The notes under the pieces are model-generated. The model saw only the letters and a program-made list of their open reading frames with translations, made no database searches and was not told the origin of the DNA. From Botryllus schlosseri (taxonomy: Eukaryota), in contig CM119372.1 in NCBI GenBank assembly GCA_051294905.1, positions 31,994,001-32,058,000 of the forward strand: DNA of 64,000 bases, in the 5' to 3' direction. The position numbers and the translations under genes are program-made. Positions within the stretch are counted from its first letter, which is position 1, and each line of letters starts with the position of its first letter. Positions 20,901 through 51,534 of the stretch are shown piece after piece.

Positions 20901-21076
20901 CACATGATGCCGCGTTACAACACATTCGCGGGCGAAGTACGTATCGGATCTGAACTACACGCAACGGAATGAACGCGTGTTATATCCCCAACGCACATCC
21001 TCGACAAGAGAAATTAGTACCGATATCGTGTCGTTCGCACATTTCACATCATACTTCACCACACAGGTCTCACGTG

Positions 21077-21182
21077 ATGGTACAGTGGAATAGACGGTTT
21101 CTGCTGTTTCAGCTTTGCTGCTCAGTAATATTGCAGCGTGCACTTGCAGGAGTGGTAGAAGAACTTTTAAATGCAGGAAAAG
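21077..21182 (+). CDS. First coding exon with signal peptide (MVQWNRRFLLFQLCCSVILQRALA/GVVEELLNAGK)
   Basis: Basic n-region, hydrophobic core and ALA cleavage motif; phase-1 donor aaag|gtaata. Confidence 0.7.
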
Positions 21183-24100
21183 GTAATAAGCATTGCCCTC
21201 TTTGCAAGGGAATTTAAAGGAACTCGTGACACGTATGCCTATTATGCCTACTCTCTTTGCAACCTGGTATACGAAAGCAGATCAGCCTCGGAACAGAGTA
21301 AACGCGGTATGCCAAAGCTGTAGCCGCGCGTGATTGAAACTTGAAGTCAGGTTTCAAGAGGTGTTAAGCATTAGCATTGCGGCAAGCTCATTCAAACGCA
21401 AGATAATTCAGCTCTCTACTCCAGTGTGATCGATTAGCAATTTCAATTGTTGCGCCTTGAAAATACAGGTTCAAGTTATTGTTTTAGTATACATGGTTTT
21501 TTGACTGCATTGATCATTTTATAGCGGGCTTTTGTTTTTCATTACGTTTCCTGAGCTTCCGACGATTTAGCAAGGCCCACTGTCGTTCTAAACCAGTGGT
21601 TCTCAACCGGGGGTCTGCGAAACCTCCAAGTTTGAACAATGTGTGATAGCTTAATTTCTCTTTTTTTAATTAGAGAAATCGCGAAGCAGTTTCGCTTCAT
21701 AACTGCTAAAACTTCAGGACTCACATAAACAGAATGGCAGTCTGAGATGGAATATTCTACTGTGGAAACTCATTTTAATTGCCAAATGGTCAATAGCCTA
21801 CTGATACAAACATCTTGCTGTTTAGAGATGTTTTGTTGTGGTTTCGGAATAAATTCGCTCGCATCCATTTTCTCCTGAGATATACATAACCGCTATTCCA
21901 GAATAACTTCAAGATAAGCTGCTATATAGAAATGACTATGCTGGACGTTATATTGGTTGCATGTATCTTGCGATCAGACCTAAAGGTGTCGTCGGAAGCG
22001 TTACGCGTTATTATTACATTCGCCACCACCTATATTTGTGCAAATTAATGGATTTACGGCACTCGTTCATGTCAAATCGACGGCGCGGATTTCCGAGACA
22101 CGGCAGTGTATTTCAAGAAATGCAGTCACAGAATTCGCTTTGAAATAAAAAAAACGTATTCCCAATTTCTACATAAATAGTGTGATATTAATTTCAAGAA
22201 AGGTCATTTTGTTGCTGGTTATCACTAGCCTACAGTTAATATTTGCGCAGGAAATATGACGGTTCTACGATAATACAGTTGAATTTCAACTAAAACTAGG
22301 GGTCTGCGGGGTCCGTGACGGTCCAAAGGGGGTCTGCGCAGACAAAAAAGTTTGAAAACCACTGTTTTAAACTTTTCCAAGGCACTGCTTACACTGGTAA
22401 GAAGGAGCCTAAATATGAGTCTAGATCTCATGCGAACACGTAACTCACGGTGTCGCAGCTGTGGGACGTATCACCAAGTCATCCTTCCACAACTGGAGGA
22501 TCAGGCAAACTAATCAGTAAAGCAGTCAGGAGCAAATATTATTATACCATTTCATATTATTTTCAACTTGTATTTATTCGCGCAGCTCCGAACAAACAAG
22601 CGGATGATGTTCATGGCTTTCGTCCTGACGGTGAGATCTCTGAAACCAAGCGTAGCGACACTTTCACGTGACCCCTGTGCTTTTTACTAAGTTTCAGCAC
22701 AACGGGCCGTGATGCAAGGAAATAGCAATTTGGAAGTGCCATCGTTTCCTCGGGAACCAGGTCAGTAATGCAGTTACCGATATTCATAGCACCGTCAATA
22801 TTAAAATGCCGCATAACTTGCATGTGTGCATTCGCATAAAATGATTAGAGAAGGAGATCAAATCGGTGACCACGAATGTTCAAGTTAATATCATAAAAAA
22901 GTTTTATACATGCGTTCCAAAGTCTTCATGTGTGTAATTGCTTTTGACGAGTAATATTCTGATGTGAACATACTGCTTTGGTACTCAAGAAATACCAAGA
23001 CCATTCCATCCGCCAATCGATAGTTCAAGAAACAATGAATTCATGGCGGGAGGACTCGTTATGAGACCAGGGACGGGTAAGTTTCGTTTGATTCGATGTA
23101 AACTTTCATGAATCAATTAAAAAATCAGAACAATCATATGTTCGTATAAAATGGCGTTTAGACATCTGTAAAAGAAATGATATTGTTGAGCCCCATGTAA
23201 AGTTTCGAGATGATTGTTGAGACTTTAACCTACACGCATTTTATATAAATCCGAACAATTTTGCGATATTGCTGTTTCTGCAGTGAAATTTATTTGACTA
23301 ATTCTATGATATTGCGTAATCTATCGCTCCACAATTACCGAATATAGTAATGAAGCTGTTAATAATATTCATAGCACCGTGAATTTTAAAATACCGCATA
23401 ACCTGAATGTTGTCATTAGCATAAAATAACTATAGTCTTGATGCTACTGTATTCACAAAATCAACATACTTTCTGCTTTCACCCCGCACATTATTGAAGG
23501 TGATATCAGAATAGAATAGACCAAATCAGTGACCCAGAAATGACTTGCTGACTTGCATCTCTGGCTTGAGTGTTCATAAGGATTGCAATTGATGTTGAAG
23601 AGCCGTTTTCTGCCCAAAGGTTACTGTTTTGGTATTCAGATATAACAGGCAGGTTGGATCCGCAAATCGAAAGTTCAAGGAACAATGAGTTCATGGCGGG
23701 AGGACACCCTATCAACCCCGGCACAGGTACGTTTCATTTGCTTTCATGTAAAATGTGAAGAATTTGACCCTATAAATCTAGCAATACTTTGGTTGCTGTA
23801 GTGAAAGTAATTTAAGAGGTAATTTTATGTTATGGAAATACAGTAACGAAAACAAAATAAATACTATCACAGAATATGACTTCCACCTCCTGTTTCTGTA
23901 CTCTACAGTAGTGATGGTGTGAACCTTTGAAAGGTTCAGGTTCGTGTGAACGCGAACCTTTTTGAAAAGTTCTGTGTGAATATTATATTGCGTGTATGCG
24001 TACTGACATATTGCTAATTTCAATCCTACATCTCCGTGAATTGATATTTTCATGTACACGATACCTAGCGACGATCCGGGCCACATAATGCCACAATGCG

Positions 24101-27100
24101 GAATTACATAATGACTTTTTAAACATCGCTAAATGTAGCAACTGGAGCAATCAAATGATGTAGTAATCACATAAAATCTATATCTTCCGTCGATTTGCCA
24201 ACAATTTCGACGAAGACTTGCAAGGGAATATAAGCTTACGCCTTAACGGTCTAGGCCAGACCCGACAATGTATCCGGCGTCTGAGTGTTGCTACGTTGAT
24301 AATGATCAGAGTGTAAAACAGGTTTCGGTACTTGCAACCGATATTACCCCATTTAACAAAGTATACAGCAGTAGCCGACACCCCAATCGCATGGATTGGG
24401 TTTTTATGATGCAATAAACATATGAAATCGAGATGGCCCCCGTACGCTTGCAAGATTTTTTACGTCAGACAACGATATCAATTTCATTGATTGGTTGCAT
24501 AAGCATCATTTGCTGACTATACCTACATGTGGCGTATTTCGCTCTTGATGTTGCGTGATTGCGGGTTAAGCTCACAGCATAGAGTCACTAAATATTCACA
24601 AACGGAAAGCTGGATATTTTAAGCAAATTTTTGTTACAAAGCAAGTAAAATTTTTGAGATTGTCAAGGTGTAAGCTTGTTTTATGTTGATTTTTATGCTT
24701 CCATCGCCATGCATCGAGTGGCCCGCAGTTGAAATGCAATAAATTTCAACCCAAGATGTTATAATGACGTGAAAATTACAATATATGAAAAAGGTTCAGA
24801 GTGCAGAGAACCTACAAAGGTTCGTTGGTGAACGTGAACCTCTAAATGTCTGAGGTTCACTCACAGAACGCGAACGTGAAGCTCGCGTACACACCATCCC
24901 TATACTCTGCAGTCTACTTGGTCTGACTCATTTTCTACATCTCCTACTGTAGGCTATGTGCACTGTGCAGCATGCATAAGTTATTAAGTATATATAGAAG
25001 ACAAATATAGTTTAATATATGTGGAAAATTTGATAGTTTCGTCTTTGTCAATGAGAAATATTTTTCCGCATTTACATGCCAACCTTACCTTTTGCGTTGA
25101 AGGGGAAATAGAGAAAAACAGTCCGCATGAGTTTGGCGGGGGTCATCCGACTTTTGTTGAAACGAGCTTTTCAAACCAGCAAACAGGTACGTTGACCGTG
25201 TAGCCAATAAAAATGACGCAGTCTAATGTAGTTCCGGATATTTGTCTGATTATACTCGGTACGACTAGTCTTTTATTGATATAATGTAAAATTTGAATTC
25301 GTGGATCACGTAGATCAGGGGTTCTCAACCCGCGGCAGACGCTTGTTCTGCGGCCCGCGAGCTCTTTCAATATGATCGCAATTACTACCGGCACAGTATT
25401 GTTGCATATTAATTTAGCTACTTAAGCTCTCTTATCGCACCGTCTCTGTTTCGTTTGATTTATTCTCATTCTTCAATGTGTTCTGGTTTCTTGATATATG
25501 GTCGAGTTTAGATTCTTATTGTTTTGAATAGGTCTTCGGACAGTTCCATCTGGAGTTATACATATCACCTGATCTTATAAAAAAGCGTTACTAGCTAGGT
25601 CTGAGGCCCAGCAATCCATATTTTGAGGCATTGTTGAGATTGCCGACGATGTTAAAGACGCATGGTTCAAAATTGCTTGGTATATCGCTAAACCCCCATG
25701 GAATGTGCTAGAAAAAGTGTGTCTCCAACAAAACGTTACTATACTGTGCGAATCTCCGCTGTTTCCGGAATTTAGCAGCAAGGACAACTTCACCTAACAA
25801 ATTTCGAAGCTGCAGTTGTCTGATTCAACCGTGACAAGAAGAGTAACAGCAATGTCAGTTGATCTTTTGTCGCATGTTTTGAAACACGTTGCCGCGTACA
25901 CTACTTTAACCAAACATTGGACAAAATCCACGGACATTGCAACGCTAATTGTATTGGAGTATTCTATCGGAGTGGATATATTTGTAGACGTAATGCTGGC
26001 CGGGAAAACGTGGGGAGAGGGAACTAGCAAACAACATCAACTTGACAAAGCTGACATCTGTAACTATTGGTGCAGAGCATCAGCCACGGAAGGAAAGGAG
26101 AAGGGTTGAATGATTGGTTTGCTCAGAAGTTACCCCGAACAAGAGACTTCTTCTCGTATCACTGAGAGCTCAAAGTGACAATGGCCTCTGTAACGAAAAA
26201 GTTACCGTAATTTTATACTTGCTCGCTCACGCATTAAAACAGAGAGTTCAGTTCTCTGGTGCAAGGGTTTGAAGGTGCACATACCGACTTGGGAACGAAT
26301 GCAATGCACGCTTCATGAAGGGATTTACTTGTTCCGTCGGAAGATAACATAATCTCACTAGAAACAGCAACTGAAAGCTTACGAACGCTGTCTATTAATG
26401 CTGTAGAATGCATACAAATGCACTAAATGCCCATATACGACTGGTAAATAGGCTATATTAGCCTAAATATAATAGTAGTCCACAAATATACGGTAATAAT
26501 ATTCTGCGGCCCGCAGCGGTTTTTGCTGTTAAGATGCGGCCCGTCATGCAAGGAAAGTTGAGAACCTCTGACGTAGATGATAGATTGGTTGGAATTTTGA
26601 CGGGTAGGCCTACTCTCAAAAGCTTAGTCGGAGTATAAGTTGAGATAACCATATTGAGTTTGACAGTGCCGGCAAAACACCTAATATTAATGATCGACAA
26701 ACTGAATATTATAGTCTAAAACAGGAGTCGCGAACATACGGCCGGAAGGCCGTATCCAACCCGAGAAGCAATTCTGAGTAAATGAAACATTTCTTGCATT
26801 ATCCGCCACATTTCTATCAAAGTTTAGATTTTTAATAAGAAATGCTTTCATGTAAATAATTGCTTCAGACATTTTAACACATTATAACCCTGATTTCATA
26901 GTAATGAACCGAATTCCGAAGTTTGCGTTGACAGTTAAATATCTTGTATTCCCCACAACGAATACGGAGCAACGTAGGACCAACAATGTATCACGACTAA
27001 AACAGGTGGAACATAGAGATATGTTAACTTATATAGTTATTCATATATAACGTTGTAGGTTCATGCCACCGTTTTAGCAGTTTATATGTGCGGTCAATCG

Positions 27101-30100
27101 GCCAAATTATCTATTTGTATTAATTCCTTATTTGGCCAAATGGCAATGGCCATTTGGCGAGGTATAGCTGGACTAGATTCTCTGAATAAGTTCTCTATAA
27201 TCCAAAATATTATGCATTGTATATAGGCTTGATAATGAAGGATACCAATAAAAAGAGAGTTTGACAGCCCTGGTCTAAAATTTTCACTCCCTAAGGCCTA
27301 GACCTTCTCACTGTTTATATTAGGTCGTTGCGGCAGCAATATTTGGTGTTTGGGTTTGCAACGTACATCGACATTGTACGTATATATTGCTACTGGCACA
27401 GATGTCTCTATTGAAGTGTATACTCTGCCTTATTAGTAGCACTGTAGTATCTGTCTACCCTCAGTACTGACTCAAGGAATTTTGTCTTCTAACGACTTTC
27501 ACTACGAGTTCAACAATTTTAGGAAACGCGCTACTTTACGTTTCACCGTCTATATTTGGAAAAGTAAAATGTAACCTTTGGATGCATTTGCATCGACTTG
27601 TAAATTGCCGTTATATCCAAGTTATGTAGCCTATGCCAGGGACTACGGGAGCTTCACATTTATATAGAAAGTTGGAAATGTAGCGCCCCTATGCTCAATC
27701 TACACTAGCAACGAGACGGCATGACACGATTCCCCAGAATAAGTTGAATATTCAGCCTAATTTCGAAAATTGTTGCTTGCCATTGGCAAACTATTTCGTA
27801 TTTCGTAATTGCAATCTACTGCTCTAACTTCTCCCTCAAGTAATATTGAAATTTTCCACTTGAGTGCTCCTGCCAGACTTGATCATCAGTGCGTCTTCTG
27901 GTAATTGTGTGGAACTTTGCAACGAGTGCACTTACTATTAGCTGTGAATCATCAATAACTGATAACCACCTTTGAGAATTGGCAGTTCAATTTATTTTTC
28001 AATGTTTGAAGACTCAATAAAAACGCTCGTTTTTAAGGAATATATCTACCGACGCATTCGGACCTGGGTAAGATATCTTTCTGAGCTAGTCGGTATAAAT
28101 TTACCGAGACTCTTCCAATTTGCTGCTCAGGGAATATTTTATTGGGAACTTTCGGTATCTCTGATCCCCATGAGCTGGAAAAGATGTGGCATGTATTTAC
28201 TGGTGAGAGACATTCTTCTTGATTATTTTTCAACTCAAAACTAAGTTAAGGCGTTACAAGACATTGAATTAAAGATTAACACATCCGCGCATCAATCCAT
28301 TCACGTACACATGAACAGATGTACACTTGTAGAGTGTACAATGCTTGCAATTAAGTCTATATCTTTTTCGACAGAAATCGTGCGTAGGGAACAACGCAAC
28401 AGACACATGGAACTAAGTAAGTCATACCCAATTGAGGATATAATAGGGTTGATTTCCACGGATCATTTTTTCAGCGCTTCAGCTGGCACCGTATCCAGGT
28501 GGTAAGTTGTGAAATAATACGTGCAATTTTATGACCATGGGCACGGGATTTTGATTGTGTAATGTAATGGACACGTACAGGGTATCGAGACAGCTAAAAG
28601 CGGTCCATGACAATCACGCCAGCATATTCATATTTTCAGGTTCATGAGCCTCATGTTCACGTTATTTTCGTCGCCTTCTTTCGCGTGCGTCTTTCGTATG
28701 GTCTGCCATCCCTTATGAATAGAGAGTTACAGTTGAGGAGGATCGATCGACACTTGCAAACGCCACAGACCAGAAAGTCGAACCAGTTATCGTCAGCTAA
28801 CGGACTCTTTGTCCAGTGCGCACGGGCTACGAACAGCTTTACCAACGCGCTGTTTTTGTTTAATGCAAACGTTCCTAGCCAATAACCAGGCGTCACGGTC
28901 TATTATTGCTTACACGATAAGCCCCTATTAACCCTTTTAATGGGGGGGGGGGGTCAGTGGTGACCCAAGTTCAAGTTCATCTCTCAATTTCTCCAAATAT
29001 ATATGTCGTAGCGGACTGCTTCTGGTTTCTATGGAAAGCCTGCTATCTTCTGCTTTATATGATACCTAATTTGAACGTATAGGGCATGACAGTTTTCTAA
29101 TACCGACGATCTTACATGAAGAGTTCGGCTGAAAATGCCCATGTCTAAAATTTCCAGATATTTTCCGAGTGGGAAATATAGTCAGAAATTCTGCCAGAAC
29201 ATCAGAAGTCGACTTGTACGGTATTCTGTGTAATTTATCACCGTTTCGAACATCAAACCTTGTTCTGGGGAATTTTGTGAGGGAGTTTGTTAATTGTGGT
29301 CACGCTTCGGTGATTTTCAAAAACATAGTCAAGTTCAAGTCCAAGTTCGCGACGGAATATGACTCATGAACTGGTTTACTATGCCTGCAAATGGTGGGAT
29401 ATGACAGGAGACAGTATACCACGTTGTTTCATGCCATTAACTGGGCGGTAGGGGTCCGATTTGGTATTGATCTTGAACTTGACCATCTTGAACTTGACCA
29501 CTCACTGACCACGCCCATATGTAAATTTTTCATGTATTTTTGATTTTTCGATATCCGGCGAGCCGCGTGGCTTACGGTCATGGTTGACGGCTTGTTTGAA
29601 ACCAGGCAACGGTGGCTACGCACTGAGGCATCATTTTTGACTCTCTGACGCTACCCTGGGGGTCAGTCTAGAAAAATGAGAGAGAGAAAGAGATTTTTCA
29701 GAAAAAAGTTTGTTTATTTAGTCTTATAAAAAACCCTTGACATGGCATGGGGTGTCGATCGAGGGCGGAAACGGTAGATGGCTATACTCCGGCCACTTTT
29801 AAACTGGATCAGCTCAGATTGAAGTCTTGGTGAGGTCACGGTATGAATTTGAAAAGTGATGGTCAGTTCTGCAAAAACTGACCCCCCATTAAAAGGGTTA
29901 AATCTCCTGCCTAACAGATCATCCATATCTAGAAGTACTCTACCTATGGAATGAATATATATAATTGTATCCTGACAAAACTCTTGAATTTAGAACACAA
30001 AAGTCATCCCGATATTGAAGACCACCTCCTTCAAATGCAGAGCGGTAAGAGAGAATGCATATAATCACGTGCACGGGATACTACTAAAAATGCAATAAAT

Positions 30101-33100
30101 GTTAAGTTGTATTGAGTATGCCTACGCTCATAATGCGATCAACCCGCCACTTATGATAACTTGTTAAATTTCAGAGGGAGGGCTGAATCCGGAAGTACTG
30201 AATCATGTAACATATATGGCAATGATGTATGTAAATAGTAAGTACCTTCTGCGCCTAATTTGACATCATATATTTAAGACAGGTACGGGTCAGAGTTTCT
30301 ATGCGGATTCGAATGTAACGTCCGACGATAACGTTAGTTAGGGATATGACTGAGTCCGTATCTCGCTATTTACTCCAGGAACATAAAAGTAGCCAGTATG
30401 ATTTCACGAAAGTATCGGTGAATATAATTTAGGTAGCGGGTTGGCGTGGTTCCGTTCACACCGCATTGTCGCCATTCACCCATATGAAATATTTCATTAC
30501 AGCATATATCGCTTATCATAACGTTTGAAACTGATGTTTCGCAATCTAGTATTTACTTATCATTTCGTAATCTAGCAGTCCATGGCGTGTCCTCATCTGG
30601 AAACGGGGACTCTGACTATTTTTAGTTTTAGAGCAGTTTTAGCATACCACCTTTGAAAATTTCTGGACTAAAGACATTTTCCGCTATTAGAAGTAGTATT
30701 TATACTTCATTTTCAATTCCCAGTATCATATACTTTGAGTTCTAATTAATATCAGTTCTTTTGTTTGGATACCATACATGTTGAAGTATAAAAACAAGTG
30801 TAGTAATGCCTTTAATTTCCAGAAATAAAGCTACACGACATGGCATTTTTGCGATCCGCCATTTTTTTATTAACCTTTACTATCTCGCAAACTGTTTACA
30901 CCGTATCCTATACAACTTATCCGTATTGCTCTGTGACTAAACTACGGGCCGTATGATATGGGGGAGGGCACCATACCATGATATTTTCTGAAACATGCTG
31001 TTTGAGTAAATGAAGGATTAGTATCGCATTTCCATCATATCAATACTATCATTTTCATCCCATTATGCGGACGAATACTTATGCTGTCGAAAATTGGATA
31101 CCTCCTGGTATGTATCAATATGAATCAAGCTCGGCACCTTTCGCATAGCTCAATTTGCAGCTTTTGACAATCCATGCGAACGAAATACGATCGTTTTCAA
31201 ATCTACTCACTTAATTGAGTGGATTTAGAGTCAGTAAATTCTACTTCTACTTCACGTAGTTTTGGGTTGCTTATGGAAGAAGTACTTCTACTTCTACTTG
31301 AGTAGCCGTCTTGACTACTTTGACCACCTCTGATATCCCGCAATTATACAGACACGAGATATTCAAATTCACAATGGCAAACGGTGCTAAAGTATGAAAC
31401 GTTCTAGAATATGAGATGAAGCTCGTGCAAAACTCTCACAGCATGAAAATAATAATGCCATTTCCTGAATTCGACCATTGGAATTTTTTACTGGAGCTCT
31501 ATCGCAGTTAGGGTTGCATTTAAAACAAACGGTGTTTTAAAACACTTTGTTGAAATCATGTTTTAAACAGTGTTTTAAACAATGGCCTTTAAAAAAAATT
31601 GTGTTTGTTTAAGGTGTAAAATTATGCCAGTATTGTGTAAATACTTCAACAAAAAACATGTTGTATGAGCCTACGGACAATTTTAACCGATGTATATAGA
31701 TATGGGATGGTTGGAACCCTCAAAATAGTCGGTTCAACAGCAATAGTGCAGATATTTCGTCAAAAGAGCTATATTTACCCTATATTTTCAATTGTCAATG
31801 TCAATTCACTATGACGTCACTTTTAAATATTCGTGACATCATGGCCTAAAACACAATGAAAAACATGTTTTAAACATGGGCCTTGTTATAAACATGTTTG
31901 TTTTAAATGCAACCCTAATCGCACTGGTTCTCAAACTGGGGGCGCGCCGTCATCATAACATTCGTAAGTGACTTTCTGCATTAATGCATATTGCATTCAA
32001 ACTTTAACAGGGCTGATAGATTTATATATCTATAATTTCGGTATCTATATTGAGGATACACATTTCTATAAATCAAGCGTTTGCGGCTTATATTCGTGAC
32101 ACGCAATCATCTGAAAATTTCGAATAATATGTCTATCCGCAATGGACATACTAAGCAGATACATTACAGTTTCATACCAATATAATTCACTTCCCAGTTA
32201 CTATGCTGCATGTATCTCGTATCGTCTGCAATTCTTTAACGTGTATTTCAGACAACATGAGAGCGCCGAAAGGAATGTATGGACTGCATGGTAAGTCAAA
32301 TATATTATGCCCGACAATCTGCCGATTTGAACTGAAAAGTCCACTACTTTTGAAACCGCATTGTACATAAAATATTATTAAAATAAAATAAATAAAATAG
32401 AAATCCCAAATATCGTCATCTCCGACCTAAAACCTACATATATTCCACATATTGACTTTTTAAGCATACGATAGATTGCTTATCGACAAGAATAAAGCAG
32501 TTTATGCAATTCGTGATGAGTGCTGGTACTGATGTAGCAGTGCACTTGTCGAAAAAGGCACATAGCGTGGTGTGGTGGTAGTAATGGACTAATGGTGTGT
32601 ACCTTGTAGTAGTAGATGCACCAACCGCGACTGTATACATTTCTATGTGAATAACACTGTGGTGAGATATGGCCGTTTTCCCACAGTCCATGATTACGAT
32701 ACTACAGATTTATTTTTAATGATCGTCGCAGTAACAAGTGACGTCACAGTGTTTTTCATGGCTTTTTCGTGGCTGTACTGTGTACGCGTATAGGAAAAAT
32801 AACATTCAGAATTAAGTATTAAAACGACAATTTTACGCTCGAATATTAATTTGAACACAACTCAGATACATCAGATGAATTAATGAATTTTTAACGTGGT
32901 GGTGGCCACCCCCCCACTAATAGAATGGTTAACATTAGGTATACAAGTGTGTTATGCCGATGCTTGAAACCAAATGGTGATTATAAGCTGTTAGCAGCAA
33001 CCACCGGCTCGTCGATTATAGCCAATTCTACTGTCTATTTGCCTCCAGGACACACAACGTTAACCGCACGCTAACGTTAATCGTCAACGTTTTCCGCAAA

Positions 33101-36100
33101 AGGCTGGCAGTATTTGGAAATTTTGTTGTGGCTAATCTAGGACGTGGACTTGCGTTCTTTGCGTTTTCTGTGAAGACGAACTGCTGCCAGACACCCTTCA
33201 CTGTCGTCTTAAACATTTTTTAAATCAATTTATGCGCTTTATTTAGCAATTCATAGTTTGAATAATCAATCAATAATTTGACTTATCGGGTCCGAAGAAT
33301 CCTTTCGAAATGTAGTTCGCATTGATTCATTTATAAAGGAGTATATATTGCTTCACCACCGATGACAGAGAAGAAATAGTTTTCTGTTAATTTCTTATTG
33401 ACCACCGGGCATTCATCTTCTATTTTCGCTATTTGGTCAAGTCGGAAAGTTCGTTGTCGATGACAACGCTGAACAAATTTACACTCTACGAAAGCGAGAT
33501 CTTTTGAAATAAGCACTTCGGTCGGACACTAATAACTTGTCCCACTTGCTAAACATATTCGGGTATTATTTACGTTATTATCCAACTAATGCTGTGAGTT
33601 CACCGCAGCCGAAACTGCGGTCGGGCTAATGCAGAAACAGCAAATATACAACCTACTTCAAAACTATATTATGGCGATAATTTATACTTATAAGATAGAA
33701 TAAACCGAGAAAAGTATTAACTATGTCTTTATATATTTTCGCGAAATTATATCTACATATGATATATCTTTGCTGGAAGCCTTCGCGGGTGGCACAAAGA
33801 GTTGCTGCAGGATGCATGCGACCCACAAGTCGTATTGTTTGCCCAATGTCCTGCTCTACATTGTAAATTGTTCACTCGGAACCTATCATGGATTTGCTCC
33901 TTCGGTAATTCTCATGGCAAGCAATACATGAAGTAACATATAGTCACCAGCGTAATAAACTAATTCCTAGTCCGACTAAAAATTATATTGTAATTAAGCA
34001 TATCCATGTTTTAGTTCAAGTCTGGCAAAGGGAACGACTTAGTGAGTATTAATCTGCCGGTATGAGGGTACAGAATTCTGAATTTACGATTTCGCACGTG
34101 TGATTGTAATTGACAGGCGAAACCTTGAATGCTGAGTTTGGACAACAAGCAAACAGACACTTTAATGGAATGTGGTACCAGTACGTAGGTAAGTGTTAAA
34201 ATACCATGCATCTCCGACAAGGTTGATATCGTATAGTCGATTTACCTCCACGTATTTCGTAACTCACCATGCCCCAACACTAATATTTAACTGAATGCGG
34301 TGATGTCCATGAAAACGCACTATTACTCATTCGCCGATTTGAATACGCAAACCAGACTGTATTTAATATAGGCATTAATGTGATATCTTTGTGCGCGGAA
34401 TATTTGTACATTGTCGGTTAAAACAACTGAGGCCAATTTTAGAACTTTTTATTTCGCTCAAAAATGAATATCAGAGATATCGCACGATTGAGTTAGCAAA
34501 ATCGAACACCCATCAAAAACGCCGAAATGACATGTGACTCGACGGGTAGCATACACTAATCCTTGAGTAGCTGACTATACTTAAAGAATAAAGTCTAACC
34601 TTATCCGCAAATGACTCCTTTACCATAGATAACGTTTTTTGTGGTTAACCTCCATGAACTCCTGATCTAGAGTTTAAATTTGTTGTTCAAGAAAATATAA
34701 TGGAAGTGTGGAAATGCTCATACGACAATATGGTTGTGATTCTATTTCAGACTCTATCGACAAAGCAATGGAGGCACGTAATTTAGCACCAAGTATGACA
34801 ATATCTGTAGTTTTCTAAGAAACTTTGAGAACTAATAATATGTTATTTTTAGTGTTCGTGAGCGTTGAATTACCTCCAGCAGGTAATGTCTCTATAGCTG
34901 AGGATTTTATGGTCAGCCTCAATATTAATTAGTAACTGCATGTAATTTATACGGTTTCACACTTGGTGATGAAATCGAAAGTCCTGACACTCAGTCCTTA
35001 ACGGTATAAAAGTATCAAGCACGTCTGTGATGCAGATGAGAAATGCAACATCCTTCATTATATGTCGTAAGCATGCAAACATAGTCAAAATGAATTCGTC
35101 ACGCGAACAGCTACCGCTACTAACCCGTTCAGGTTACAGTGTAGGCTTGATGCTGCGAATATATTTATTTACTTAGAAATGCGGCACAGGGAGGACATGA
35201 GAAGACGTATGGACCAACTGCTGCAACGTAAGAAAATAGCCTACCTGTGTCGTGGTATAGTCACTGATGTTCCATGGTACGAAACTAAACGTACTGGAAT
35301 TCCTACACAAATAGCATATCAAAAGAATGAAGGATTTCTATGGGGCAACAAATTTATATTAATGCCCCTATAGTCCAGTGTTAACATGGCCCTTAACTTT
35401 GGACTATCGGCGTATAAGCGGTAGTACAACGTCCTTCATAATGCTACAAAGGTGATATAGTGATGGGTACACGACGTTTTACGGCGGTGTAAACGACCAT
35501 TGATACAGTCAAAGATTGAAAGAGACTTATGTGAATGTCATTATAACACCCACAATTGCCTCATACTTGATCTTCTAAAAGCAAATCAATATTATATATT
35601 TCAGAGGGAGACCCTGAAGCGCAAATGATGGCTCGAGTGGAGGAATTATCAATGCAATATATGGATGGTAAGTTTTGAAATATAGCATACACAGTATTTG
35701 AGTTGTTGAGCAATACATGAACGCTTTTAATGACCTCGAAACAGTAGCAATGGTCGAAATTAGGATCAAATCGTGTAGCACTATTTATATACGATAGGAT
35801 ATTGAAATAGGGTCAATACTTAAACATGGGAGCCATCAATAAGGGTGTGCTAATATCAGCATTAATACTTTATGATGCAGCAGTCAATGTACAGTAGAAA
35901 TATAAATCCTGCGAACGCATATACTGACGAGGTTGTCCGTTATTTTGGCATGTAACTTTATAACCTCCCTTCAAAAAAACGAACTCCAACTTAATCATGG
36001 CGAGGATCCTAACACATGCTAAAGCGTCGCATGCCATTGTCTCGCCGCTCGTCACATGTCGGCGAAACAAAATATGCACACCCAGGCACGTACCCAGGAC

Positions 36101-39100
36101 AAGAATTAAATTGAGTCATATGCATTTTTCGGTGGGTAAGACAAGTTAAATTTCCCTATATCATATTAGTATACGTCCATTGTGATTTAATAAACAGACT
36201 GCGTCACAAGGTTTGAGTTGTAAACGTGGGCAAAATGAGCCATTTGCCCATCCTTCTATATTTCTTTGTATACCGCAAAGATCGGCGACTGTATTAACCG
36301 TAAAGAATATTTTGGTACATTTATGTTTTAAATTTCGATTCTTGGGTAGCAGTAGCAAGCCGCCGTGACTGTTCCATCACCGATCACGCATCATTTGGGG
36401 CTCTTCGAAGTAAAATAGGCGCCCTCAATTCACCGCGCCCGGCTTGACAAAAAACCATGGCTGTCACCTAATGAATAATCCGAATCTTTATGCAGGTTTT
36501 CTAAAGGAAGTCGAAATTGAAAGAACGACTCCAGGTTAGAAATGTTCCGGTCGCTCATTTTGCCTTATTTTGCATGAGTAGCAAATTCCACCTTTCTTCG
36601 TCTGATAGTTGTGTACTAATTGATACGCATGGAATATTTGTTGATAATGCTGTATATGGTAACGCACTCGATATTAAACACAGAAACTCCCCGAAATTAT
36701 TGTCAGTAATTTAATCTGCCTATTTTGACCAGATTACATTCGATGAAGACAATGGAGACATGACACTAGTAGCATGTACAAATGATTAATCAGATGTTGT
36801 GGTGGCAATTGAAAGTGGTGTCATCAATGTAGATTCCTCACGAGTCCGAACATGTATATTGTTGATATATTATGAATCGGGTAAATCGATTATTATATAA
36901 TCGGTTAACTTGACTTGACCCCAGTCAAAATGTGCAATGACTCGAAATGACTTGTGACTCGAAGGTATAGTGACTTGATTCCAACACTGCATTCTAGTGT
37001 CATAAATATTGTGACTCAATCATGGATTTTATTTTAATCGATTGGGAATCATTTGAGTGAAGGAACTACGAGCATTTCGATCAACGCCTTGGAAGCTTCT
37101 ATTTAAATTATCTGAGCGAGTCCAACCAATCCTCCAATCCTATCTCAAACTGACTTCTAATGCAAATGAACGCGACACCACCCCACCTTGAACCCAAGCC
37201 TTGATGTTTTTTGACAATTGCCTTGAATCATTGTTACAGTGATGGCGCAAGAACGACGGAAGTTGGGTGAGATCGATGAAGCAACAGCAATCATGTCGAA
37301 ATGTTTTTTCATGTTCCTGAAATTCCTGTTTACAGATTCATTCTTGGACAATAACTTTGAAAATGTGGGATACGAGACGAAAAGAGATATGTGGTATCGC
37401 TACGCATGTGAGTACTGTTTCGATTGAATGTATAGTGATTGAATATCTTTAAATTTCCGCGTAATCTTGAATAAAAACAAGTAATGACTTTTTTGGTGTA
37501 TTGCAGTATTCATATCTAGGCGGAAATATTTTTAAATTGAAAATCATCTCATAAAATACAAAAATTAAATTGCGATATTTAGAATAACAGTTCATAATTA
37601 TAATATCAGGTAGACGGAAAAATAAGCGATGTAGCATGCGCCTGTATAAGTCAAATTCACAAATATAAGATGTACAATTAGTACAAATATATAAATGTCG
37701 GCGGTGATTGAATTATATATGTTAGATGTAGCACTGATCGTTGCTTGCGACGTCAAGTAGAATGAATTAATTTTAAAGTAAAGTTTAAAGACAATTGAGA
37801 AATGTAAGTTGTTGAAAATAAACACTTTATGATAGCGATTAGATATTGACGCACACCATCGAATGAGTGGTGGTTTAAGACACCAAGCCCACAGCCGGTT
37901 GAACTCACCGAAGAAAAATTAGTATCTTACACATTTCCTATAATCAAGCGCCTCGCGCCGTATACGGAGCGCTGGGTTCAAACTATGCAATATGCATCGC
38001 TCAGTCGTTTGTGCGAAACGTCTTCGCTTTTAAAAATGAGAAAAATATATTTCTTTTCATTCTTCACAGCCAGAATTCATGAAGAAATACAGGCATGGAG
38101 ACCGCCAGAAAGACCAAGTATGAAACAATGACAATATTGGTACTTTCTGTTGAGGTGTCTTAAAATGAACAATGGGGTACGTTTCAGATTTTCTGCAACC
38201 GATTCTTCCAATTCGTAAGTAGTATTAAGCTAGGGCATTTCGACACGACAATGACTTCTGGCAAAACATCCCTGCCGACGTTGTAATCATTACCGCGAAC
38301 ATCATTATTTCTCACTATAATTGAAACTCGCGTGTACTTCCGTACTGCAATGATATATTAGGAATATACTCTTCCTTCTGGGTATACTGATGATTCTGTT
38401 TCTTAAGGATATTTAAGCACTGTCATTCTTTAATTCACTAATACCCGTTCTGTTGTTATAGCGTACGCAGACGAGCTTGACTTTCAACGTCATATGAGTC
38501 AAATTCAAAGAGGTAAGATATTGGCAGCTTGTGTTAACATCATTAATTTATCATCAATGAAGATAATGCTTGAAATATATAGTACCCTGCGATTACTCTC
38601 ACATCCTTCGTTTCATACATGTAATCGACTCCATAAGTGACAATCATGTCCCGTTTTGTAATATTGTAAAGTACACTATGTATATCTAAATTGACAGTTG
38701 TGTCGATTACTCTTTTATGGACGTAAAGCTGTGATCTACAACAGGCTGTACCCGAATGGGCGATCGTTTAGTTAGCAATGGCATGTAAATTATTGTCTCA
38801 ATGAATCACGCGAGTTATTGTTAAAAGCTGACCAAGAACACATCTCTATGGGCTATCAGATATACATTTCCTATTTTGTTGTTGTTGAAAACGGTCCCCG
38901 CAAAGCTTTAGTACCGTACATCACATACAAGTGATGCAGCTCCACGGCAACAGCAACTCAGAAAGGCTATTGTGGCTATTGTTACGTTACGTTCGTACAG
39001 GCCTATCACAATATACAAATAGGCTATGTAGGATTGTAGGCCTATACTGTTCATGTTCATAGAGTACCATTGAACTTTTTAGGTTTGATGAACAGAGGTG

Positions 39101-42100
39101 GTCAGTAACGAAGTACTTCTACTTTTTCGAAGTACTCAAGTAGTTTTCCTCTACTTTTGTTACTTACTCAAGCAGATCCGATTTTCGCTACTTCTACTTC
39201 TACTTCGTAATATTTTGTGATCTACTTACTTACTTTTCGCTATTTTCAGTTTGTCAAGTAGAAGTAGTTCAATCTTCCAATCAGGAAGATAGCCTGAGAA
39301 ATTTCGGGGCTGTTTTCACGGAGTATCAACATTTAATTTTCACAAAAGTTGAGTAAAGCCAAGAATTTTCGTCGTGCTTCGCGCGCAGTGGACATGTAGT
39401 CACCAGTATGATTTCACGAAAGTATCGGTGAATATAATTTAGGTCGCTGGTTGGCGTGGTTCCGTTTACACCACATTGTCGCCCTTCGCCCATATGAAAT
39501 AATTCATCACAGTATATATGGCTCATCATAACGTTTGAAACTGATGTTTCGCAATCTAGCATTTACTTGTCATATCGTAATCTAGCATGTCCACGACGTG
39601 TCCTAATCTGGAAACGTGGACTTTTTTTTAGTTTTAGAGCTGTTTTAGCACACCACCTTTGAAACTTTCTGGACTAAAGGCATGAAATACATGCTCTGCT
39701 TTTAGAAGTAGTCTTTATATTTCACTTTTAATTCCCAGTATCATATGCTTTGAGTTATAATTAATATCAGTTCTTTTGTCTAGATAAGATACATGTTGAA
39801 GTATAAAAGCAAGTGTAGTAATGCCTTTAATTTCCGGAAATAAACCTACACAATATGGCATTTTTACGGTCCACCATATTTTTTATTAACGTTTACTAAT
39901 CGCGTGTTTACACCGTATCCTATGCAACTTCTCCGTATTGCTCTTCGACTAAACTACGGGCCTTATAATATGGGGATGGCGCCGTACCATGGTATTTTCT
40001 AAAACGTGGTATTCGAGAAAACAGAGGATTAGAATCGCATTTCCATATCAATACTATCATGATGTTGATGAATGCTTATGCTATCGAAAATTGGATACCT
40101 GTTGGTATGCATCAATATGAATCACGCTCGTCACCTTTCGCATAGCTCAATTTGCACCTTTTTACAATCCATGTGAACGAATTAGGATCGTTTTCACAAC
40201 TACTTACTTACTTGAGTACTTTTAAAGTCAGTCAATTCTACTTCTACTTCAAGTAGTTTTAGGTTGCTTATGGAAGAAGTACTTCTACTCGTACTTGAGT
40301 AGATTTTTTCGTCGCTACTTCTACTTCTACTTGAGTAGCTTTCTTGACTACTTTAACCACCTCTGTTGATGAATGAAACCCCGTTCTTGTTGAGCAGAGT
40401 ATAGTGTCTGTTGTTTAACGTAGGCCTACATAAAGTAACCAAGGTCTATTAGAGCAGTCCTTTTAAATTAAATGGTAACCATTTCGCCATTATTGATATG
40501 TAAGTCAAAAGGGTGTCAATAGGGCAGTGACGATTGAAAATACTAGTTTTAATTTGTGTATTTCCATGCCTAATATGCAAAACTTATCAATTCGTTCCTA
40601 TTATACTGATCGATCTATTTATAGTTTTTTTGGAACTTTCCTTTTCAGACGGGGGACAGGAATCTGAAATCATTCAGGTTGTGGATGCTCTCGCTGATGC
40701 TTTTGTGCTAGGCAAGTATAGAACGAATGTTAGTTAGACTATGAACTAGTTATAGTACATTCTTAGATATATTTTGAACTCGTCACGGCAGATGAGCACT
40801 TGAACGGATTCTTGTTTAGTTTCATGTTTATAATCTGAAATCAATAAGTCAAAACTTTACCAAAATGTTGGATGACTTCTCCAGAAATCGGAACTTTTGG
40901 GTTAAAGTGTGACGTCATTTAACATCCCGAACAATTTACTTCTTTCTCTGTATATTCCAGCTTGATATGGTTGTTCAAAATTGACCAAATTTCAAATATA
41001 AATATAAGTGATCGTTTAGGTCAGGGGCGGGCAACATACGGCCCGCGGACATTTTCCCGTCTTAGTTGATAATGTGGCCCGCCAGCCGGTGTCCCGTCAA
41101 TACCGAGAAAACCATTACCGAGAAAGCCATTACCGAGAATGGACATCATCGAGAATGGATATTACCGAGAATGCAATGTATGCAATGCAGGCATGTTATG
41201 TATATAGACAGGTCGTGTGCATGTGCGTGACGGTTTTGCCACATTCGGTGTCGATTCTCAAATATAAATTTCTTGACAACGGTTCCTCAGTAAGTTAGAT
41301 TCTTGGCATTTACCGTTTTCGGTAATGTCCATTCTCGGTATTGGTATAGAACCGTAAATGCCGATACTGTAAGTCTTCCCGCTTCTACTTACTTACGCGT
41401 GAGCTCCACTCTCGCACGCTGCGCACACACGCAAATAATAACATACAGTCATTAAAATTTGACGTAGTAAGCAAGTAGTGGGGAATCTCGACAGACTTAG
41501 GCCGCGGGGGCTCTATACCAATAAAGAGAAAACTATTACCGAGATGCGCGCGAGAGTGGAGCTTACGCGTAAGTTCGTAGAAGCGAGAAGACTTTCATTA
41601 ACGGCATTTACGATGTACTCAACCCTAATGAATTCATATCTTGTTAAATTTGGGGTACCGGGCTTATCGAACGCCTTGCAATCTAAATTAAGGATTGCAC
41701 CATGTGTTGACTGATCAAAGAGAAGCAGACATGGCGACGCCTGTATGACAATGGTGTTCTCAAATCCACATTGTCTTCGTCATCATCGGCGAGAAATGGC
41801 TTTGAAATGACATTGCTGTCGTTACAATACATTCATTACATGCGATTTATTCCTAGTATATGAGGACAAATGGGCGAATATTGTATCGATTCAGCTATCC
41901 GACCCGCCAAGTATACTTAATTTTCCTACATCCGGCCCGCCGACTGGAGAATTTGCCCGCCCCTGGTTTAGGTTGAAGATCTCAATGTAGCTAACGGTAA
42001 CCGTTAAACAATGAGAGGGGGATTTGCATGGTGCTAAGTATAATAAAAAACTGACAAAGACGTTCTTACGATTCCGTTAAAGAAGCAAAGCTATATTTAG

Positions 42101-45100
42101 ATACAGGTACTGACAAAATTCGGATTTTCAGCCACTTTCAAATAATGCGTCGTGAAATAAAGTGTTTGCATCACAATTTTAAAGCAGTAGTTCTCAACCT
42201 TTTTGACCTCGCGGACCTGTAAAACTGAAATGATAATGTTTGCGGACCGGTGAACCTTCAAAATCTGAATTAACCCTACATCTCATTGGAACAATTACAT
42301 GCAACTCAAATGTAATATTGGAATCTTCATTTTACGCTGCCTTTTTGTTATTAGATATTTATACGTCGTTCTATTTGAAGTTTTTGCAAGGTGAAGCTCC
42401 CGAAGTCCTGTTAATGACCACTAACCTGATTATGATTGTTTGGCATCCTTTGAAAGTAATGCAACTTTGCTCTGGCTATAGCATCTGATATAGCCTACTG
42501 CCACGGGTCGCTAAATTGCACCGCCTGAATTTAACGAAGTTTGATGAAAAATCTCCGCTGTTTTGGCATAAAACTTGTCCAAAGTTGTAGCCCACTTCCA
42601 AGCATTTTCGTATAACAATTTATTTCTGCTGTACGCCCAAAGTGGTCCGTGAACTCTCTATTACTATACCATGCAGAGATGGTTGCATGTTTGCAAATTT
42701 AGAAATCAACTTAGAATATGATGTGGTAACTGCATCTGGTAACTGGTTGTAATCAGTGATATTCTCAAAGTTAGTCAATTCTGAACAACCCCGCTGTATG
42801 TTCACGAGTCAAGGATGTGAAATTGTGGATTCACATTACTATAGGTCGCCTATATTGTGGATTCACATCACTTTAAGTCGCCGGTGTGTCTCAAACTCAA
42901 GACAGCTATAGCTTGTTGTATACGATTCAGCGTCGTCTGATGAGTATTGACGCACAACATCCATTATATGATTGGTTTAATGAATATTCCTGCAAATCAT
43001 TTAGAGGAAAAAAGCATACTATTATTGATTATATCCTTACTAATTTCAGGTTTTGAATCAAAGACACACCACACAGGTAGGAATATTCGGTACAGCGATC
43101 TATATTTGGTCACTTTCATTAGATATTTTCCTAGGTTCCTGTCAAAATCGATGCTACGAAGATTATGATTCTTCTCACCAGGGATGCCACTGCAATAAAG
43201 ATTGCGTGAAGCATGGAGACTGCTGTGCAGATTTCAGAGCCACGTGTAGCTTTGGATGTACGAAACTCACATTTAACAGCACTCCAGTGGTATCTGACAA
43301 ACTTTTAGGCACAATTTGATCCAAGTTCGAAAGACATGAATCGATCTACAATGTTGGATCCGAGTACACGACACCAAAATGATTCTAAATGATTTGAAAT
43401 CAAGATTCCGATTAATGCCGATCCCTTCTCCAAGTCTAAGGGCGTAAATTTGGAATGATTAAAGAGTCGATGATCGCGTTCATCAGGATTTATTATTCCA
43501 AGATTCAGGAATCCGGTTGATCGCTGCGCATACAGTTGATCGAGTTACATTTTTCATACCATGATTTAGCAAACCTCGACAGACTGTAGGCCTACACTTC
43601 ATAAAATTCCTACGCACAAAGACAGACAGACAGACAGATTCTTTATTCGTACGATGATTGTTCACACAAATATGCAAAAATGACAAACACAGCGATATGA
43701 CCACATCAAGATGTGTAGTCTTCAAGTCAGCTGTAGTCAAGGCATAACATTAGAACATTTATATCATGCAACTGTCGGTCAGTAACACTTCAACAAAAGA
43801 TTAAACAGCAAAACGCTAACGCAAAACAGTGGTAGTAGAAAAAAAAAAAAAACTGTAACACTAGTTCAAAATAATACCAGATTATACTCTCAGGTCTCAA
43901 TATGTAGAAATGAGCTGAGACTTAAAATTACGACAGAATGATGCAAATGACAAATCTCTGTGCTCTATTGATAAGGAGTTCCATATCCTTGGACCAACAA
44001 AAGTTAAGGATCTCTGGCACACACTAGCGGCTAAATTCTGTATAAAGATATTTCCAGCAGTGGCGGATCTAGTTCCGTGAGAGTGGACACCGGCAGATGG
44101 CGTAAAGATGCGGCTAAGAGCAGAAGGGAATTCACCATGGTGATATCGGTACATGGTCTTGGCAATTTCATAAGTGCAGAGGTCGCGCACTTTCAATATC
44201 CCCAGGGATTTATATCTTGGAGAAAGACGCTCGTATCGGCCCATGCCACTTATCAAACGGATAGCCCTATTTTGGAGAACTGCGATGTGATTCAAGTAGG
44301 TATCGTAAGTTAACCCCCAAAAGATGATTCCATAGTCGAGGTGAGAGTGGAAGAGTGAAAAATATATGTCTCTTAGTACAGATCTAGGGAGAATATGTCG
44401 CAAGCGAGCTATAATACCTACTGCCTGCGCTAATTTGCTGGCAAGAGCTGCTAGTTGTGGCTTCCAACTCAAATCTTTATCAATACATAGTCCCAAATAT
44501 TTGACATTAGGGACTGCTGATAGTTTATCTTTGCCGATGGTCAAAAAAGGAGAAGGTAACAAGATCTTAGGTCTGACATTGATAAGAAGGACTTGAGTTT
44601 TTGTTGCATTGATATTCAATTTGTTGAGGCTCATCCAATGACAGATTTTTTTCATTTCAATATTGACTGAGTCTTGTAGAATACTCAAATTGTTGTCGGA
44701 TTTATACAGGCAAGTGTCATCAGCAAATAAGGTAGTCGAGAATTTAGATGCACCTGGTAAGTCGTTTATGTAAATGATAAAGAAGAGGGGGCCAAGAGCT
44801 GAACCTTGAGGAACACCGCAAGTTATTTCTCTTAGCTCAGATTTCGTACATTGGTCACCAACAAATTGTTTCCGGCAGTTTAGATATGACTTGAACAAGG
44901 CTAGCGGTGTCCCTCTAACCCCATTGTACCATAGTTTATTCAGAAGTATTGAATGATCTACCGTATCAAATGCTTTTTTCAAGTCAAGAAATATGGAGCA
45001 ACCGACCTCCTTAGATATAATTGTTGATTGGTACTTGAGCATTAGATCTAAAATGGCATGTTGAGTATTGTGATGAGTCCGAAAGCCGAATTGATTGGGC

Positions 45101-51050: not shown

Positions 51051-51534
51051 TTAATGCTTATAAGTAACAAGTGCATATTATATTTCATGATTGACATTGT
51101 CGTATACACCAATACATATATGAACTATATCCGTATATTTTCCCATATTTTGGGACAAATAAACCCGCGCTTTTTGTGGTTATAGAAAGATTAGGATTCT
51201 ATTTCGGAAATAGAAATTGAGAATTTGAAGGGCAGTTTCAGATAATTTTGATCTTTTTAACGGGATCAGACGCATCCCGGATTGTTGTTGTGTAAGCCTA
51301 AGGTAGCCTACGTGATGCGTTATAACACGGCAGCTGCAGAAAATGAGAGTCAAACTTTTGTGAATAGGTATTATTCTCATTACTACAGCAAATTATTCTT
51401 ATTTTAATCCACGTACAATACACATACGAGGAGTCAAGTCAATACACTTTGAATTTACATTTTATTCCATCATAAACGTTGCGGAAGCAGCACCGGCAAT
51501 AAACGCGTTTACGAATAGTATTTCAATCTTTCCC

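Follow-up and report, generated by a model that had tools for sequence, protein, structure and literature searches.

Background

Micro-exon genes (MEGs) are described as genes in which very small symmetric exons make up most of the coding sequence (CDS). They carry a signal peptide, give rise to pools of splice variants and are restricted to platyhelminths (PMC4350168; bioRxiv 10.1101/2023.06.21.545858), and their exons are given as mostly 15 bp long (bioRxiv 10.1101/2023.06.21.545858). Two other systems are of interest here. The splice sites of tropoelastin (ELN) are reported to be exclusively of phase 1:1, which permits cassette-like removal of exons (bioRxiv 10.1101/2024.12.03.626628). The fester gene of the tunicate Botryllus is described as having 11 exons, six of them alternatively spliced, with 64 potential variants, and as encoding an SCR/sushi domain and three transmembrane segments (PMC3549757). 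We have analysed a window of 64,000 nucleotides (nt) of the Botryllus schlosseri genome (GenBank assembly GCA_051294905.1, contig CM119372.1, positions 31,994,001 to 32,058,000), which contains a long run of micro-exons. All positions below are counted from the first letter of this window. It has a GC content of about 40% and belongs to a 495.5-Mb assembly of 219 contigs.

We consider it probable that the interval 21077-51050 of the + strand is one single-copy, lineage-restricted gene with about 33-34 exons, encoding a protein of about 800 amino acids (aa) that is soluble and secreted. In the present model, 33 exons join into a single open frame of 796 codons, interrupted by 32 introns that all lie in phase 1. 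The predicted product would consist of a signal peptide, an acidic region of about 440-450 aa lacking Cys and encoded by about 27 micro-exons, two SMB (somatomedin-B) knots and a Cys-rich C-terminal part of about 240 aa. In the default transcript the exons would be included in series. The micro-exon part of the model accounts for 441 aa, or 55% of the CDS. E, R, P, Q and M are abundant in it and Cys is absent, its isoelectric point is 5.3 and its grand average of hydropathy (GRAVY) is -0.74; the other 320 aa contain 26 Cys. A further probable exon (26935-26973), if counted, adds 13 aa to these totals. No N-glycosylation sites were found in the micro-exon region. The mean Kyte-Doolittle hydropathy over 19 residues exceeds 1.6 only in the leader, which would send the protein into the secretory path. 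The product may serve outside the cell, in binding or as part of the matrix. Large protein collections yielded neither annotated nor transcript-derived entries for this gene.

The gene resembles MEGs in its architecture. A signal-peptide-like exon is followed by a run of tiny symmetric exons whose lengths are multiples of 3, with much longer introns between them, the product would be secreted, and relatives are confined to a narrow lineage. Its composite form (a micro-exon run followed by conventional domain exons) recalls VAL-6, the nearest analogue among those described (PMC4350168). As in MEGs, small symmetric exons hold the majority of the CDS (26-27 exons, all of phase 1-1), but the share is 55% here and nearly all in MEGs. 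A sequence relationship is improbable, and the product, with its SMB domains and about 800 aa, differs from the small, peptide-like MEG products; this domain content and size argue against membership of the MEG family. The exons, of 24-87 nt, also form a triplicated seven-exon module.

With tropoelastin (bioRxiv 10.1101/2024.12.03.626628) the gene shares a layout in which every intron is of phase 1:1, many short exons, an architecture that allows exons to be removed like cassettes and a secreted matrix protein, the last being a prediction in this case. It differs in that the alternating hydrophobic (G/V/P-rich) and Lys-Ala cross-linking exons are not found, in the absence of homology and in that the repeats are seven-exon modules. 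Tropoelastin having the all-phase-1 layout as well, this layout is specific neither to MEGs nor to fester. Like fester as described (PMC3549757), the gene comes from an invertebrate and has exons that can be joined in various combinations without loss of frame. In contrast to fester, however, it has about 33 exons and SMB domains, no SCR/sushi domain was found by Pfam on the exons tested, and there is no hydrophobic segment beyond the leader. As far as the retrieved texts go, the literature on micro-exon genes in tunicates yielded nothing besides a schistosome phylome.

RNA evidence for a spliced transcript

Read mapping covered 20 kb (23500-43499), an interval chosen to test splicing of the array to the first SMB exon (SMB1) and which left out exon 1. 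The runs listed for the window were eight contig sets guessed to be RNA (X1-X8; shares 0.05-0.12) and raw RNA-seq runs carrying the same species label; the raw RNA reads of X13 come from a separate study. No run was on record as an RNA holder of 21050-31049. Statements concerning junctions rest on 15 of the 34 junctions.

A spliced multi-exon transcript joins the micro-exons serially to SMB1. This is seen in an X1 contig of 523 nt (depth 9.24), which runs through 37240-37266, 37336-37407, 38070-38117, 38188-38214, 38462-38512 and 40649-40711, then through an insert of 27 letters, and then through SMB1 (43135-43257), past which it continues for 42 letters. The insert matches 43050-43076 except at three letters and represents another allele of it. 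All introns of this contig are GT..AG except one with a GC donor (AG/GCAAGT at 40712). Because of this GC-AG intron, an exon finder limited to GT donors will overlook exon 40649-40711. A second X1 contig (depth 8.59) leads from an exon ending at 34188 to 34751-34792 and on to the exon starting at 34853, both junctions being GT..AG, and another X1 contig, of 151 nt, spans 33996-34146. In a third spliced contig, of 252 nt (depth 4.73), the aligned piece begins at the acceptor of the exon starting at 28375 (28374-28375). In this contig the 58-nt intron 28417-28474 has not been spliced out, and its poly-T tract differs in length by one letter. Confirmed introns elsewhere in the gene are as short as 60-73 nt. 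Among the raw X13 reads, two support the junction from 37407 to 38070.

In all, 10 micro-exons linked to SMB1 have RNA junctions, seven at both ends and three at one end. The lengths of the seven that are bounded on both sides (42, 72, 48, 27, 51, 63 and 27 nt) are all multiples of 3, for which the chance expectation is (1/3)^7, and all seven are free of stops in phase 1, the frame being set by the Pfam match of SMB1. Most of the depth in the mapped interval is transposon-derived, and outside repeats the depth of each bin is almost exactly explained by these exons. For example, the value of 1.77 for bin 42843-43499 corresponds to 126 nt at a depth of 9.24. The X1 allele differs from the assembly in three of the 27 letters of 43050-43076 and in the first letter of SMB1, and all four changes are nonsynonymous. 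Over the SMB1 piece of the contig, three of 126 letters differ.

An initial annotation of the window, made from the letters and their open reading frames (ORFs), had proposed a hidden micro-exon gene at this location. The spliced X1 contigs and the two X13 reads establish that it is real, and the check by spliced RNA that had been suggested, run on the mapped 20 kb, found junctions over the 10 micro-exons. The description of a signal-peptide-like first exon, with many symmetric micro-exons of phase 1-1 in a row behind it, is borne out, as are, for the seven fully bounded exons, lengths in multiples of 3 and freedom from stops. Its figure of about 28 exons compares with our count, for the interval 21077-43076, of exon 1 and 27 micro-exons of 24-87 nt (including the probable 26935-26973). 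Recognisable AG/GT sites had been described for every recoverable exon; one donor is GC (at 40712), and two N-terminal exons have weak AAG acceptors. The annotation had recognised no known domain in this region. Pfam agrees for the 10 single micro-exon peptides searched, none of which matched a family. The annotation had missed the two SMB exons to which the array leads, the first by a junction seen in RNA and the second as read from the sequence. The array, which had been left as an N-terminus of unknown nature, can now be described as three copies of a seven-exon module together with a duplicated 87-nt exon.

Three tandem copies of a seven-exon module

The triplication of a seven-exon module is a new finding of this analysis. 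On the + strand, 21 of the micro-exons form three tandem copies of about 105 aa each, with the same order of exons. Copy 1 (27877-32290) comprises 27877-27900, 28131-28202, 28375-28416, 28475-28501, 29994-30044, 30175-30237 and 32252-32290. Copy 2 (34015-36534) comprises 34015-34041, 34117-34188, 34751-34792, 34853-34882, 35177-35227, 35605-35667 and 36496-36534. Copy 3 (37240-43076) comprises 37240-37266, 37336-37407, 38070-38117, 38188-38214, 38462-38512, 40649-40711 (with the GC donor) and 43050-43076. The sizes of corresponding exons in copies 1, 2 and 3 are 24/27/27, 72/72/72, 42/42/48, 27/30/27, 51/51/51, 63/63/63 and 39/39/27 nt.

The likeness of the modelled modules was assessed by comparing their local alignment scores with those of 1000 shuffles. 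Copies 2 and 3 are the most alike (Z 9.7, a score reached by none of the 1000 shuffles), followed by copies 1 and 3 (Z 6.1, again none) and copies 1 and 2 (Z 5.5, one shuffle of 1000). The exon borders of the three modules fall at matching positions in the alignments. Specific aromatic and hydrophobic positions are kept in all three (for example, a motif of M, W and an aromatic residue that ends each 72-nt exon). All seven exons of copy 3 occur in order within one X1 contig. In copy 1, the exons are backed by their splice scores, the bin depths of X1 fit 28131-28202 together with an exon of 24-30 nt, and the 51-nt exon (29994-30044) was found only when it was searched for as the missing member. 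In copy 2, the exons starting at 35177, 35605 and 36496 rest on splice scores and paralogy. For exons with no junctions of their own in copies 1 and 2, the paralogy of the modules provides support.

No DNA similarity was detected among the introns of the three modules. As the exons are alike and the introns are not, the duplication of the module must be old and the exons conserved. A DNA search of the array against its own genome returned only transposon copies. We infer that the micro-exon region grew by tandem duplication of exon blocks from an ancestral seven-exon module of about 105 aa. Because all introns are in phase 1 (the codon is split after its first base), unequal crossover between introns gains or loses whole exons in frame. 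Such crossover would account for the triplicated block and for the duplicated 87-nt exon, and for why the layout persists and expands; the symmetry of the exons would be both an enabler and a by-product of block duplication. The layout has thus allowed a multi-exon block to be triplicated in frame, with its borders kept and its introns erased. This makes the gene a clear example from nature of module expansion of the Patthy 1-1 type, operating inside a module instead of between domains. The repeated modules may form a conserved spacer or interaction array that presents the SMB pair and the C-terminal domain extracellularly.

The leader exon and the N-terminal micro-exons

Exon 1 (21077-21182, + strand, 106 nt) begins with an ATG and ends at a phase-1 donor (AAAAG/GTAATA). 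By inspection and hydropathy, it encodes a signal-peptide-like leader with a charged basic n-region, a hydrophobic core of 12 residues and an A-x-A site. It is the sole canonical candidate upstream of the array for the combination of an ATG, a hydrophobic stretch and a phase-1 donor.

Six micro-exons are predicted on the + strand between exon 1 and the first module. The first, 22586-22630 (45 nt), scores 2.7 at its acceptor and 9.0 at its donor with generic matrices. It is followed by 22698-22760 (63 nt; trained splice scores 6.2/6.7) and by two 87-nt exons, 22990-23076, which has a weak AAG acceptor, and 23640-23726 (trained scores 5.8/8.7), which lies in a bin dominated by repeat depth where reads are uninformative. 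These two are recent duplicates. The segments that contain them (22764-23113 and 23346-23763) are 76-79% identical, the central core of the exon being best kept, and on sequence comparison this exon appears to have been duplicated more recently than the seven-exon module. The fifth, 25103-25186 (84 nt), again has a weak AAG acceptor, with an alternative start at 25037.

The sixth is the probable exon 26935-26973 (39 nt), which has alternative acceptors at 26869 and 26902. It fits the 252-nt X1 contig, in which 134 unaligned letters lie upstream of 28374, that is, 72+24+38. It also fits the X1 depth of 0.6 in bin 26835-27501, which needs a covered exon of about 40-50 nt. Between a repeat and this exon, two low-depth X1 contigs run contiguously over 26574-26862; this coverage could stem from unspliced RNA, a longer exon or a low-copy repeat. 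Another candidate, 26517-26603, was rejected as it overlaps a 1.27-kb high-copy repeat.

Chance controls

Candidates were counted in all frames and on both strands. We scanned 21183-43076 with generic matrices for AG..GT pairs of 18-120 nt whose length is a multiple of 3 and which are open in phase 1. This gave 33 phase-1-symmetric open pairs on the + strand. Counts were lower in the other two frames (18 and 21) and on the - strand (12-15). A second scan used small matrices trained on exons of this gene that are confirmed by RNA or fixed by the frame of a domain, with the training exons removed and overlaps merged. At a threshold of 5/5 it gave 11 phase-1-symmetric loci, against 1-7 in 17 control classes. 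As the surplus persists after removal of the training exons, the excess of phase-1-symmetric candidates is real. Not every candidate was retained. The pair 29158-29229 was discarded because a repeat of 0.98 kb encloses it. The X1 contig passes over two candidates that look strong (39001-39027 and 42355-42390), and these are either false or skipped.

The somatomedin-B exons and the 3' part

Downstream of the array, on the + strand, lie two SMB exons with eight Cys each: SMB1 (43135-43257, 123 nt; Pfam PF01033, E 5.8e-11), which is spliced to the micro-exons in X1, and SMB2 (48556-48672, 117 nt; E 1.9e-10), whose boundaries were read from the sequence. Both matches (43 and 41.3 bits) lie above the Pfam gathering score of 23.1. 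Vitronectin, ENPP1-3, PRG4 and SBSPON are known proteins with SMB domains. The gene is like these in having two tandem 8-Cys domains, each on its own phase 1-1 exon. It differs in that the SMB pair stands in the middle of the protein, behind a micro-exon region of 440 aa, and in its orphan C-terminal domain.

Three phase 1-1 exons follow, also read from the sequence: 49262-49315 (54 nt), 49529-49648 (120 nt) and 49714-49836 (123 nt). The terminal exon (50626-51050, + strand) encodes an orphan Cys-containing domain with an EGF-like end, and has its TAA at 51048-51050 and an AATAAA at 51158. A Pfam search of four 3' exons and of the terminal frame of 152 aa returned no family other than SMB. The family-specific partner domains of SMB proteins of the vitronectin, ENPP or PRG4 type were thus not found after the SMB domains, and hemopexin, phosphodiesterase, nuclease-like and thrombospondin domains were absent from the 3' exons searched. 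Among 1.84 billion protein representatives the terminal exon has one relative (P0001, an unnamed fragment of 142 aa; 51% identity, E 5e-45). Searches at longer lengths found no homologues of the terminal frame or of the SMB1 exon. Comparison of the terminal exon with the ESM Atlas gave only weak EGF-like neighbours (0.87, below the lead level of 0.9), and a search of its own genome returned the exon itself alone, indicating a single copy.

The 5.3-kb intron between SMB1 and SMB2 contains, antisense to the gene, a retrotransposon of the long interspersed nuclear element (LINE) type (43897-47836, - strand). It has open frames of 298 aa (ORF1-like, Baculo_FP_2nd) and 1000 aa (Exo_endo_phos and RVT_1, 1.4e-31).

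Upstream of SMB1, the + strand segment 42968-43076 contains an ATG (42968/42980) and a strongly hydrophobic stretch that overlaps the last 27-nt micro-exon and has its donor in common. It is possibly an alternative or ancestral first exon of an SMB-only isoform, or else a chance reading. For the X1 isoform, a separate SMB-only gene with its first exon at 42968 was rejected: X1 uses the acceptor at 43050, and there is no depth over 42968-43049. The splice from 40711 to 43050, taken with this absence of depth, means that the array and the SMB exons belong to one transcript in that sample.

Alternative explanations

Several points stand against the explanation preferred here. No junction supports exon 1 or any of the six N-terminal micro-exons (22586-26973), which lie outside the mapped 20 kb or in bins swamped by repeats, and the acceptors at 22990 and 25103 are weak. 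All the depth from X4 and X17 over the same 20 kb came from repeats, and neither showed a junction within the gene. An AlphaFold2 model of the terminal exon, built together with its single relative, reached a predicted local distance difference test (pLDDT) value of 41 and was unusable. It might be argued that only the 3' half is real. The transcript would then begin close to module 1 or module 2, or else at the ATG (42968/42980) within an extended version of the last micro-exon, and the 5' exons and the leader would be chance matches. This would agree with the lack of junctions upstream of 28375, with the weak acceptors and with the reading of 42968-43076 as an ATG, a hydrophobic stretch and the same phase-1 donor. 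We regard it as very unlikely. X1 splices 40711 to 43050 and its SMB1 piece uses up all the depth in bin 42843-43499; the 252-nt contig extends 134 letters upstream of 28374; exon 1 has no canonical rival as a leader; and the phase-1-symmetric excess remains after the training exons are removed. These points favour the full-length gene.

A different question is what the array does. The initial annotation had suggested combinatorial diversification as in MEGs, noting that any subset of exons can be skipped without a frameshift. The latter holds for the model, given its phase-1 introns, and the architecture matches that of MEGs. According to this explanation, the micro-exons would be skipped in many combinations, giving individual or tissue repertoires for recognition or immune interplay, for which MEGs (PMC4350168) and fester (PMC3549757) are described precedents. 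Some of the data could be taken in this sense. Three module-2 exons (35177, 35605 and 36496) have zero X1 depth where their neighbours have about 9, X1 contigs break at exon borders, which may reflect branching and thus alternative splicing, one contig retains a 58-nt intron, and the nonsynonymous differences in the 27-nt exon (three of three) and in the next codon hint at fast evolution. Skipping may also lie among the 19 of 34 junctions beyond those listed. However, gaps in contig coverage prove nothing: the missing exons may equally have been lost to a 95% likeness filter. None of the 15 junctions listed skips a confirmed exon, and one X1 contig carries eight consecutive exons. The modules are conserved from copy to copy at matching borders, which suggests a conserved unit rather than interchangeable peptides, and exons of 24-87 nt exceed typical MEG exons, mostly 15 bp as reported (bioRxiv 10.1101/2023.06.21.545858). 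The raw X13 reads, with two junction reads, are too few for isoform counts. We consider such diversification unlikely. A fuller version is more doubtful still, namely a micro-exon cassette system outside flatworms in which the 27 exons would be combined variously into an individual or tissue repertoire of SMB-bearing proteins, with an array-less form from the ATG at 42968/42980 and diversifying selection on a recognition surface. If cassette splicing were true, the gene would represent a MEG-like system of variation in an unrelated animal lineage. The array could instead be an elastin-like or disordered matrix spacer, a stalk under low constraint whose length is tuned by exon number, comparable to tropoelastin or to the stalks of mucins, with no module-specific fold or partner. 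The hydrophilic, E/R/P/Q-rich composition, the lack of Cys, N-glycosylation sites and Pfam matches, hydrophobic-moment values that give no clear helix signal and the phase rule shared with tropoelastin as described (bioRxiv 10.1101/2024.12.03.626628) would all suit it. But the composition is not that of elastin (K 2.3%, G 6.6%, V 5.0%), and the aromatic and hydrophobic positions kept across modules despite the full loss of intron similarity are unexpected in a spacer defined by composition only, so that we think this explanation rather improbable. A serially spliced array of conserved modules, ahead of the SMB pair, remains our preferred reading. At present the gene appears to be a well-supported curiosity of gene architecture on an orphan, probably secreted protein, and, being invisible to ORF-based views, an example of what annotation pipelines miss.

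Repeats and neighbouring features

Intronic high-copy repeats yield nearly all the read depth on this stretch, together with several chimeric junctions. A repeat of about 1.27 kb occurs at 25309-26581 and 39093-40365 (at least 39 scored copies, 89-97% identity), one of about 0.98 kb at 28920-29905 (at least 40 scored copies, 86-96% identity) and one of about 95 nt at 36893-37023 (39 scored copies). About 0.5 kb past the stop of the micro-exon gene, an exon of an SUEL-type (D-galactoside/L-rhamnose-binding) lectin (51535-51741, - strand; Pfam 1.2e-15) belongs to a convergent neighbouring gene.

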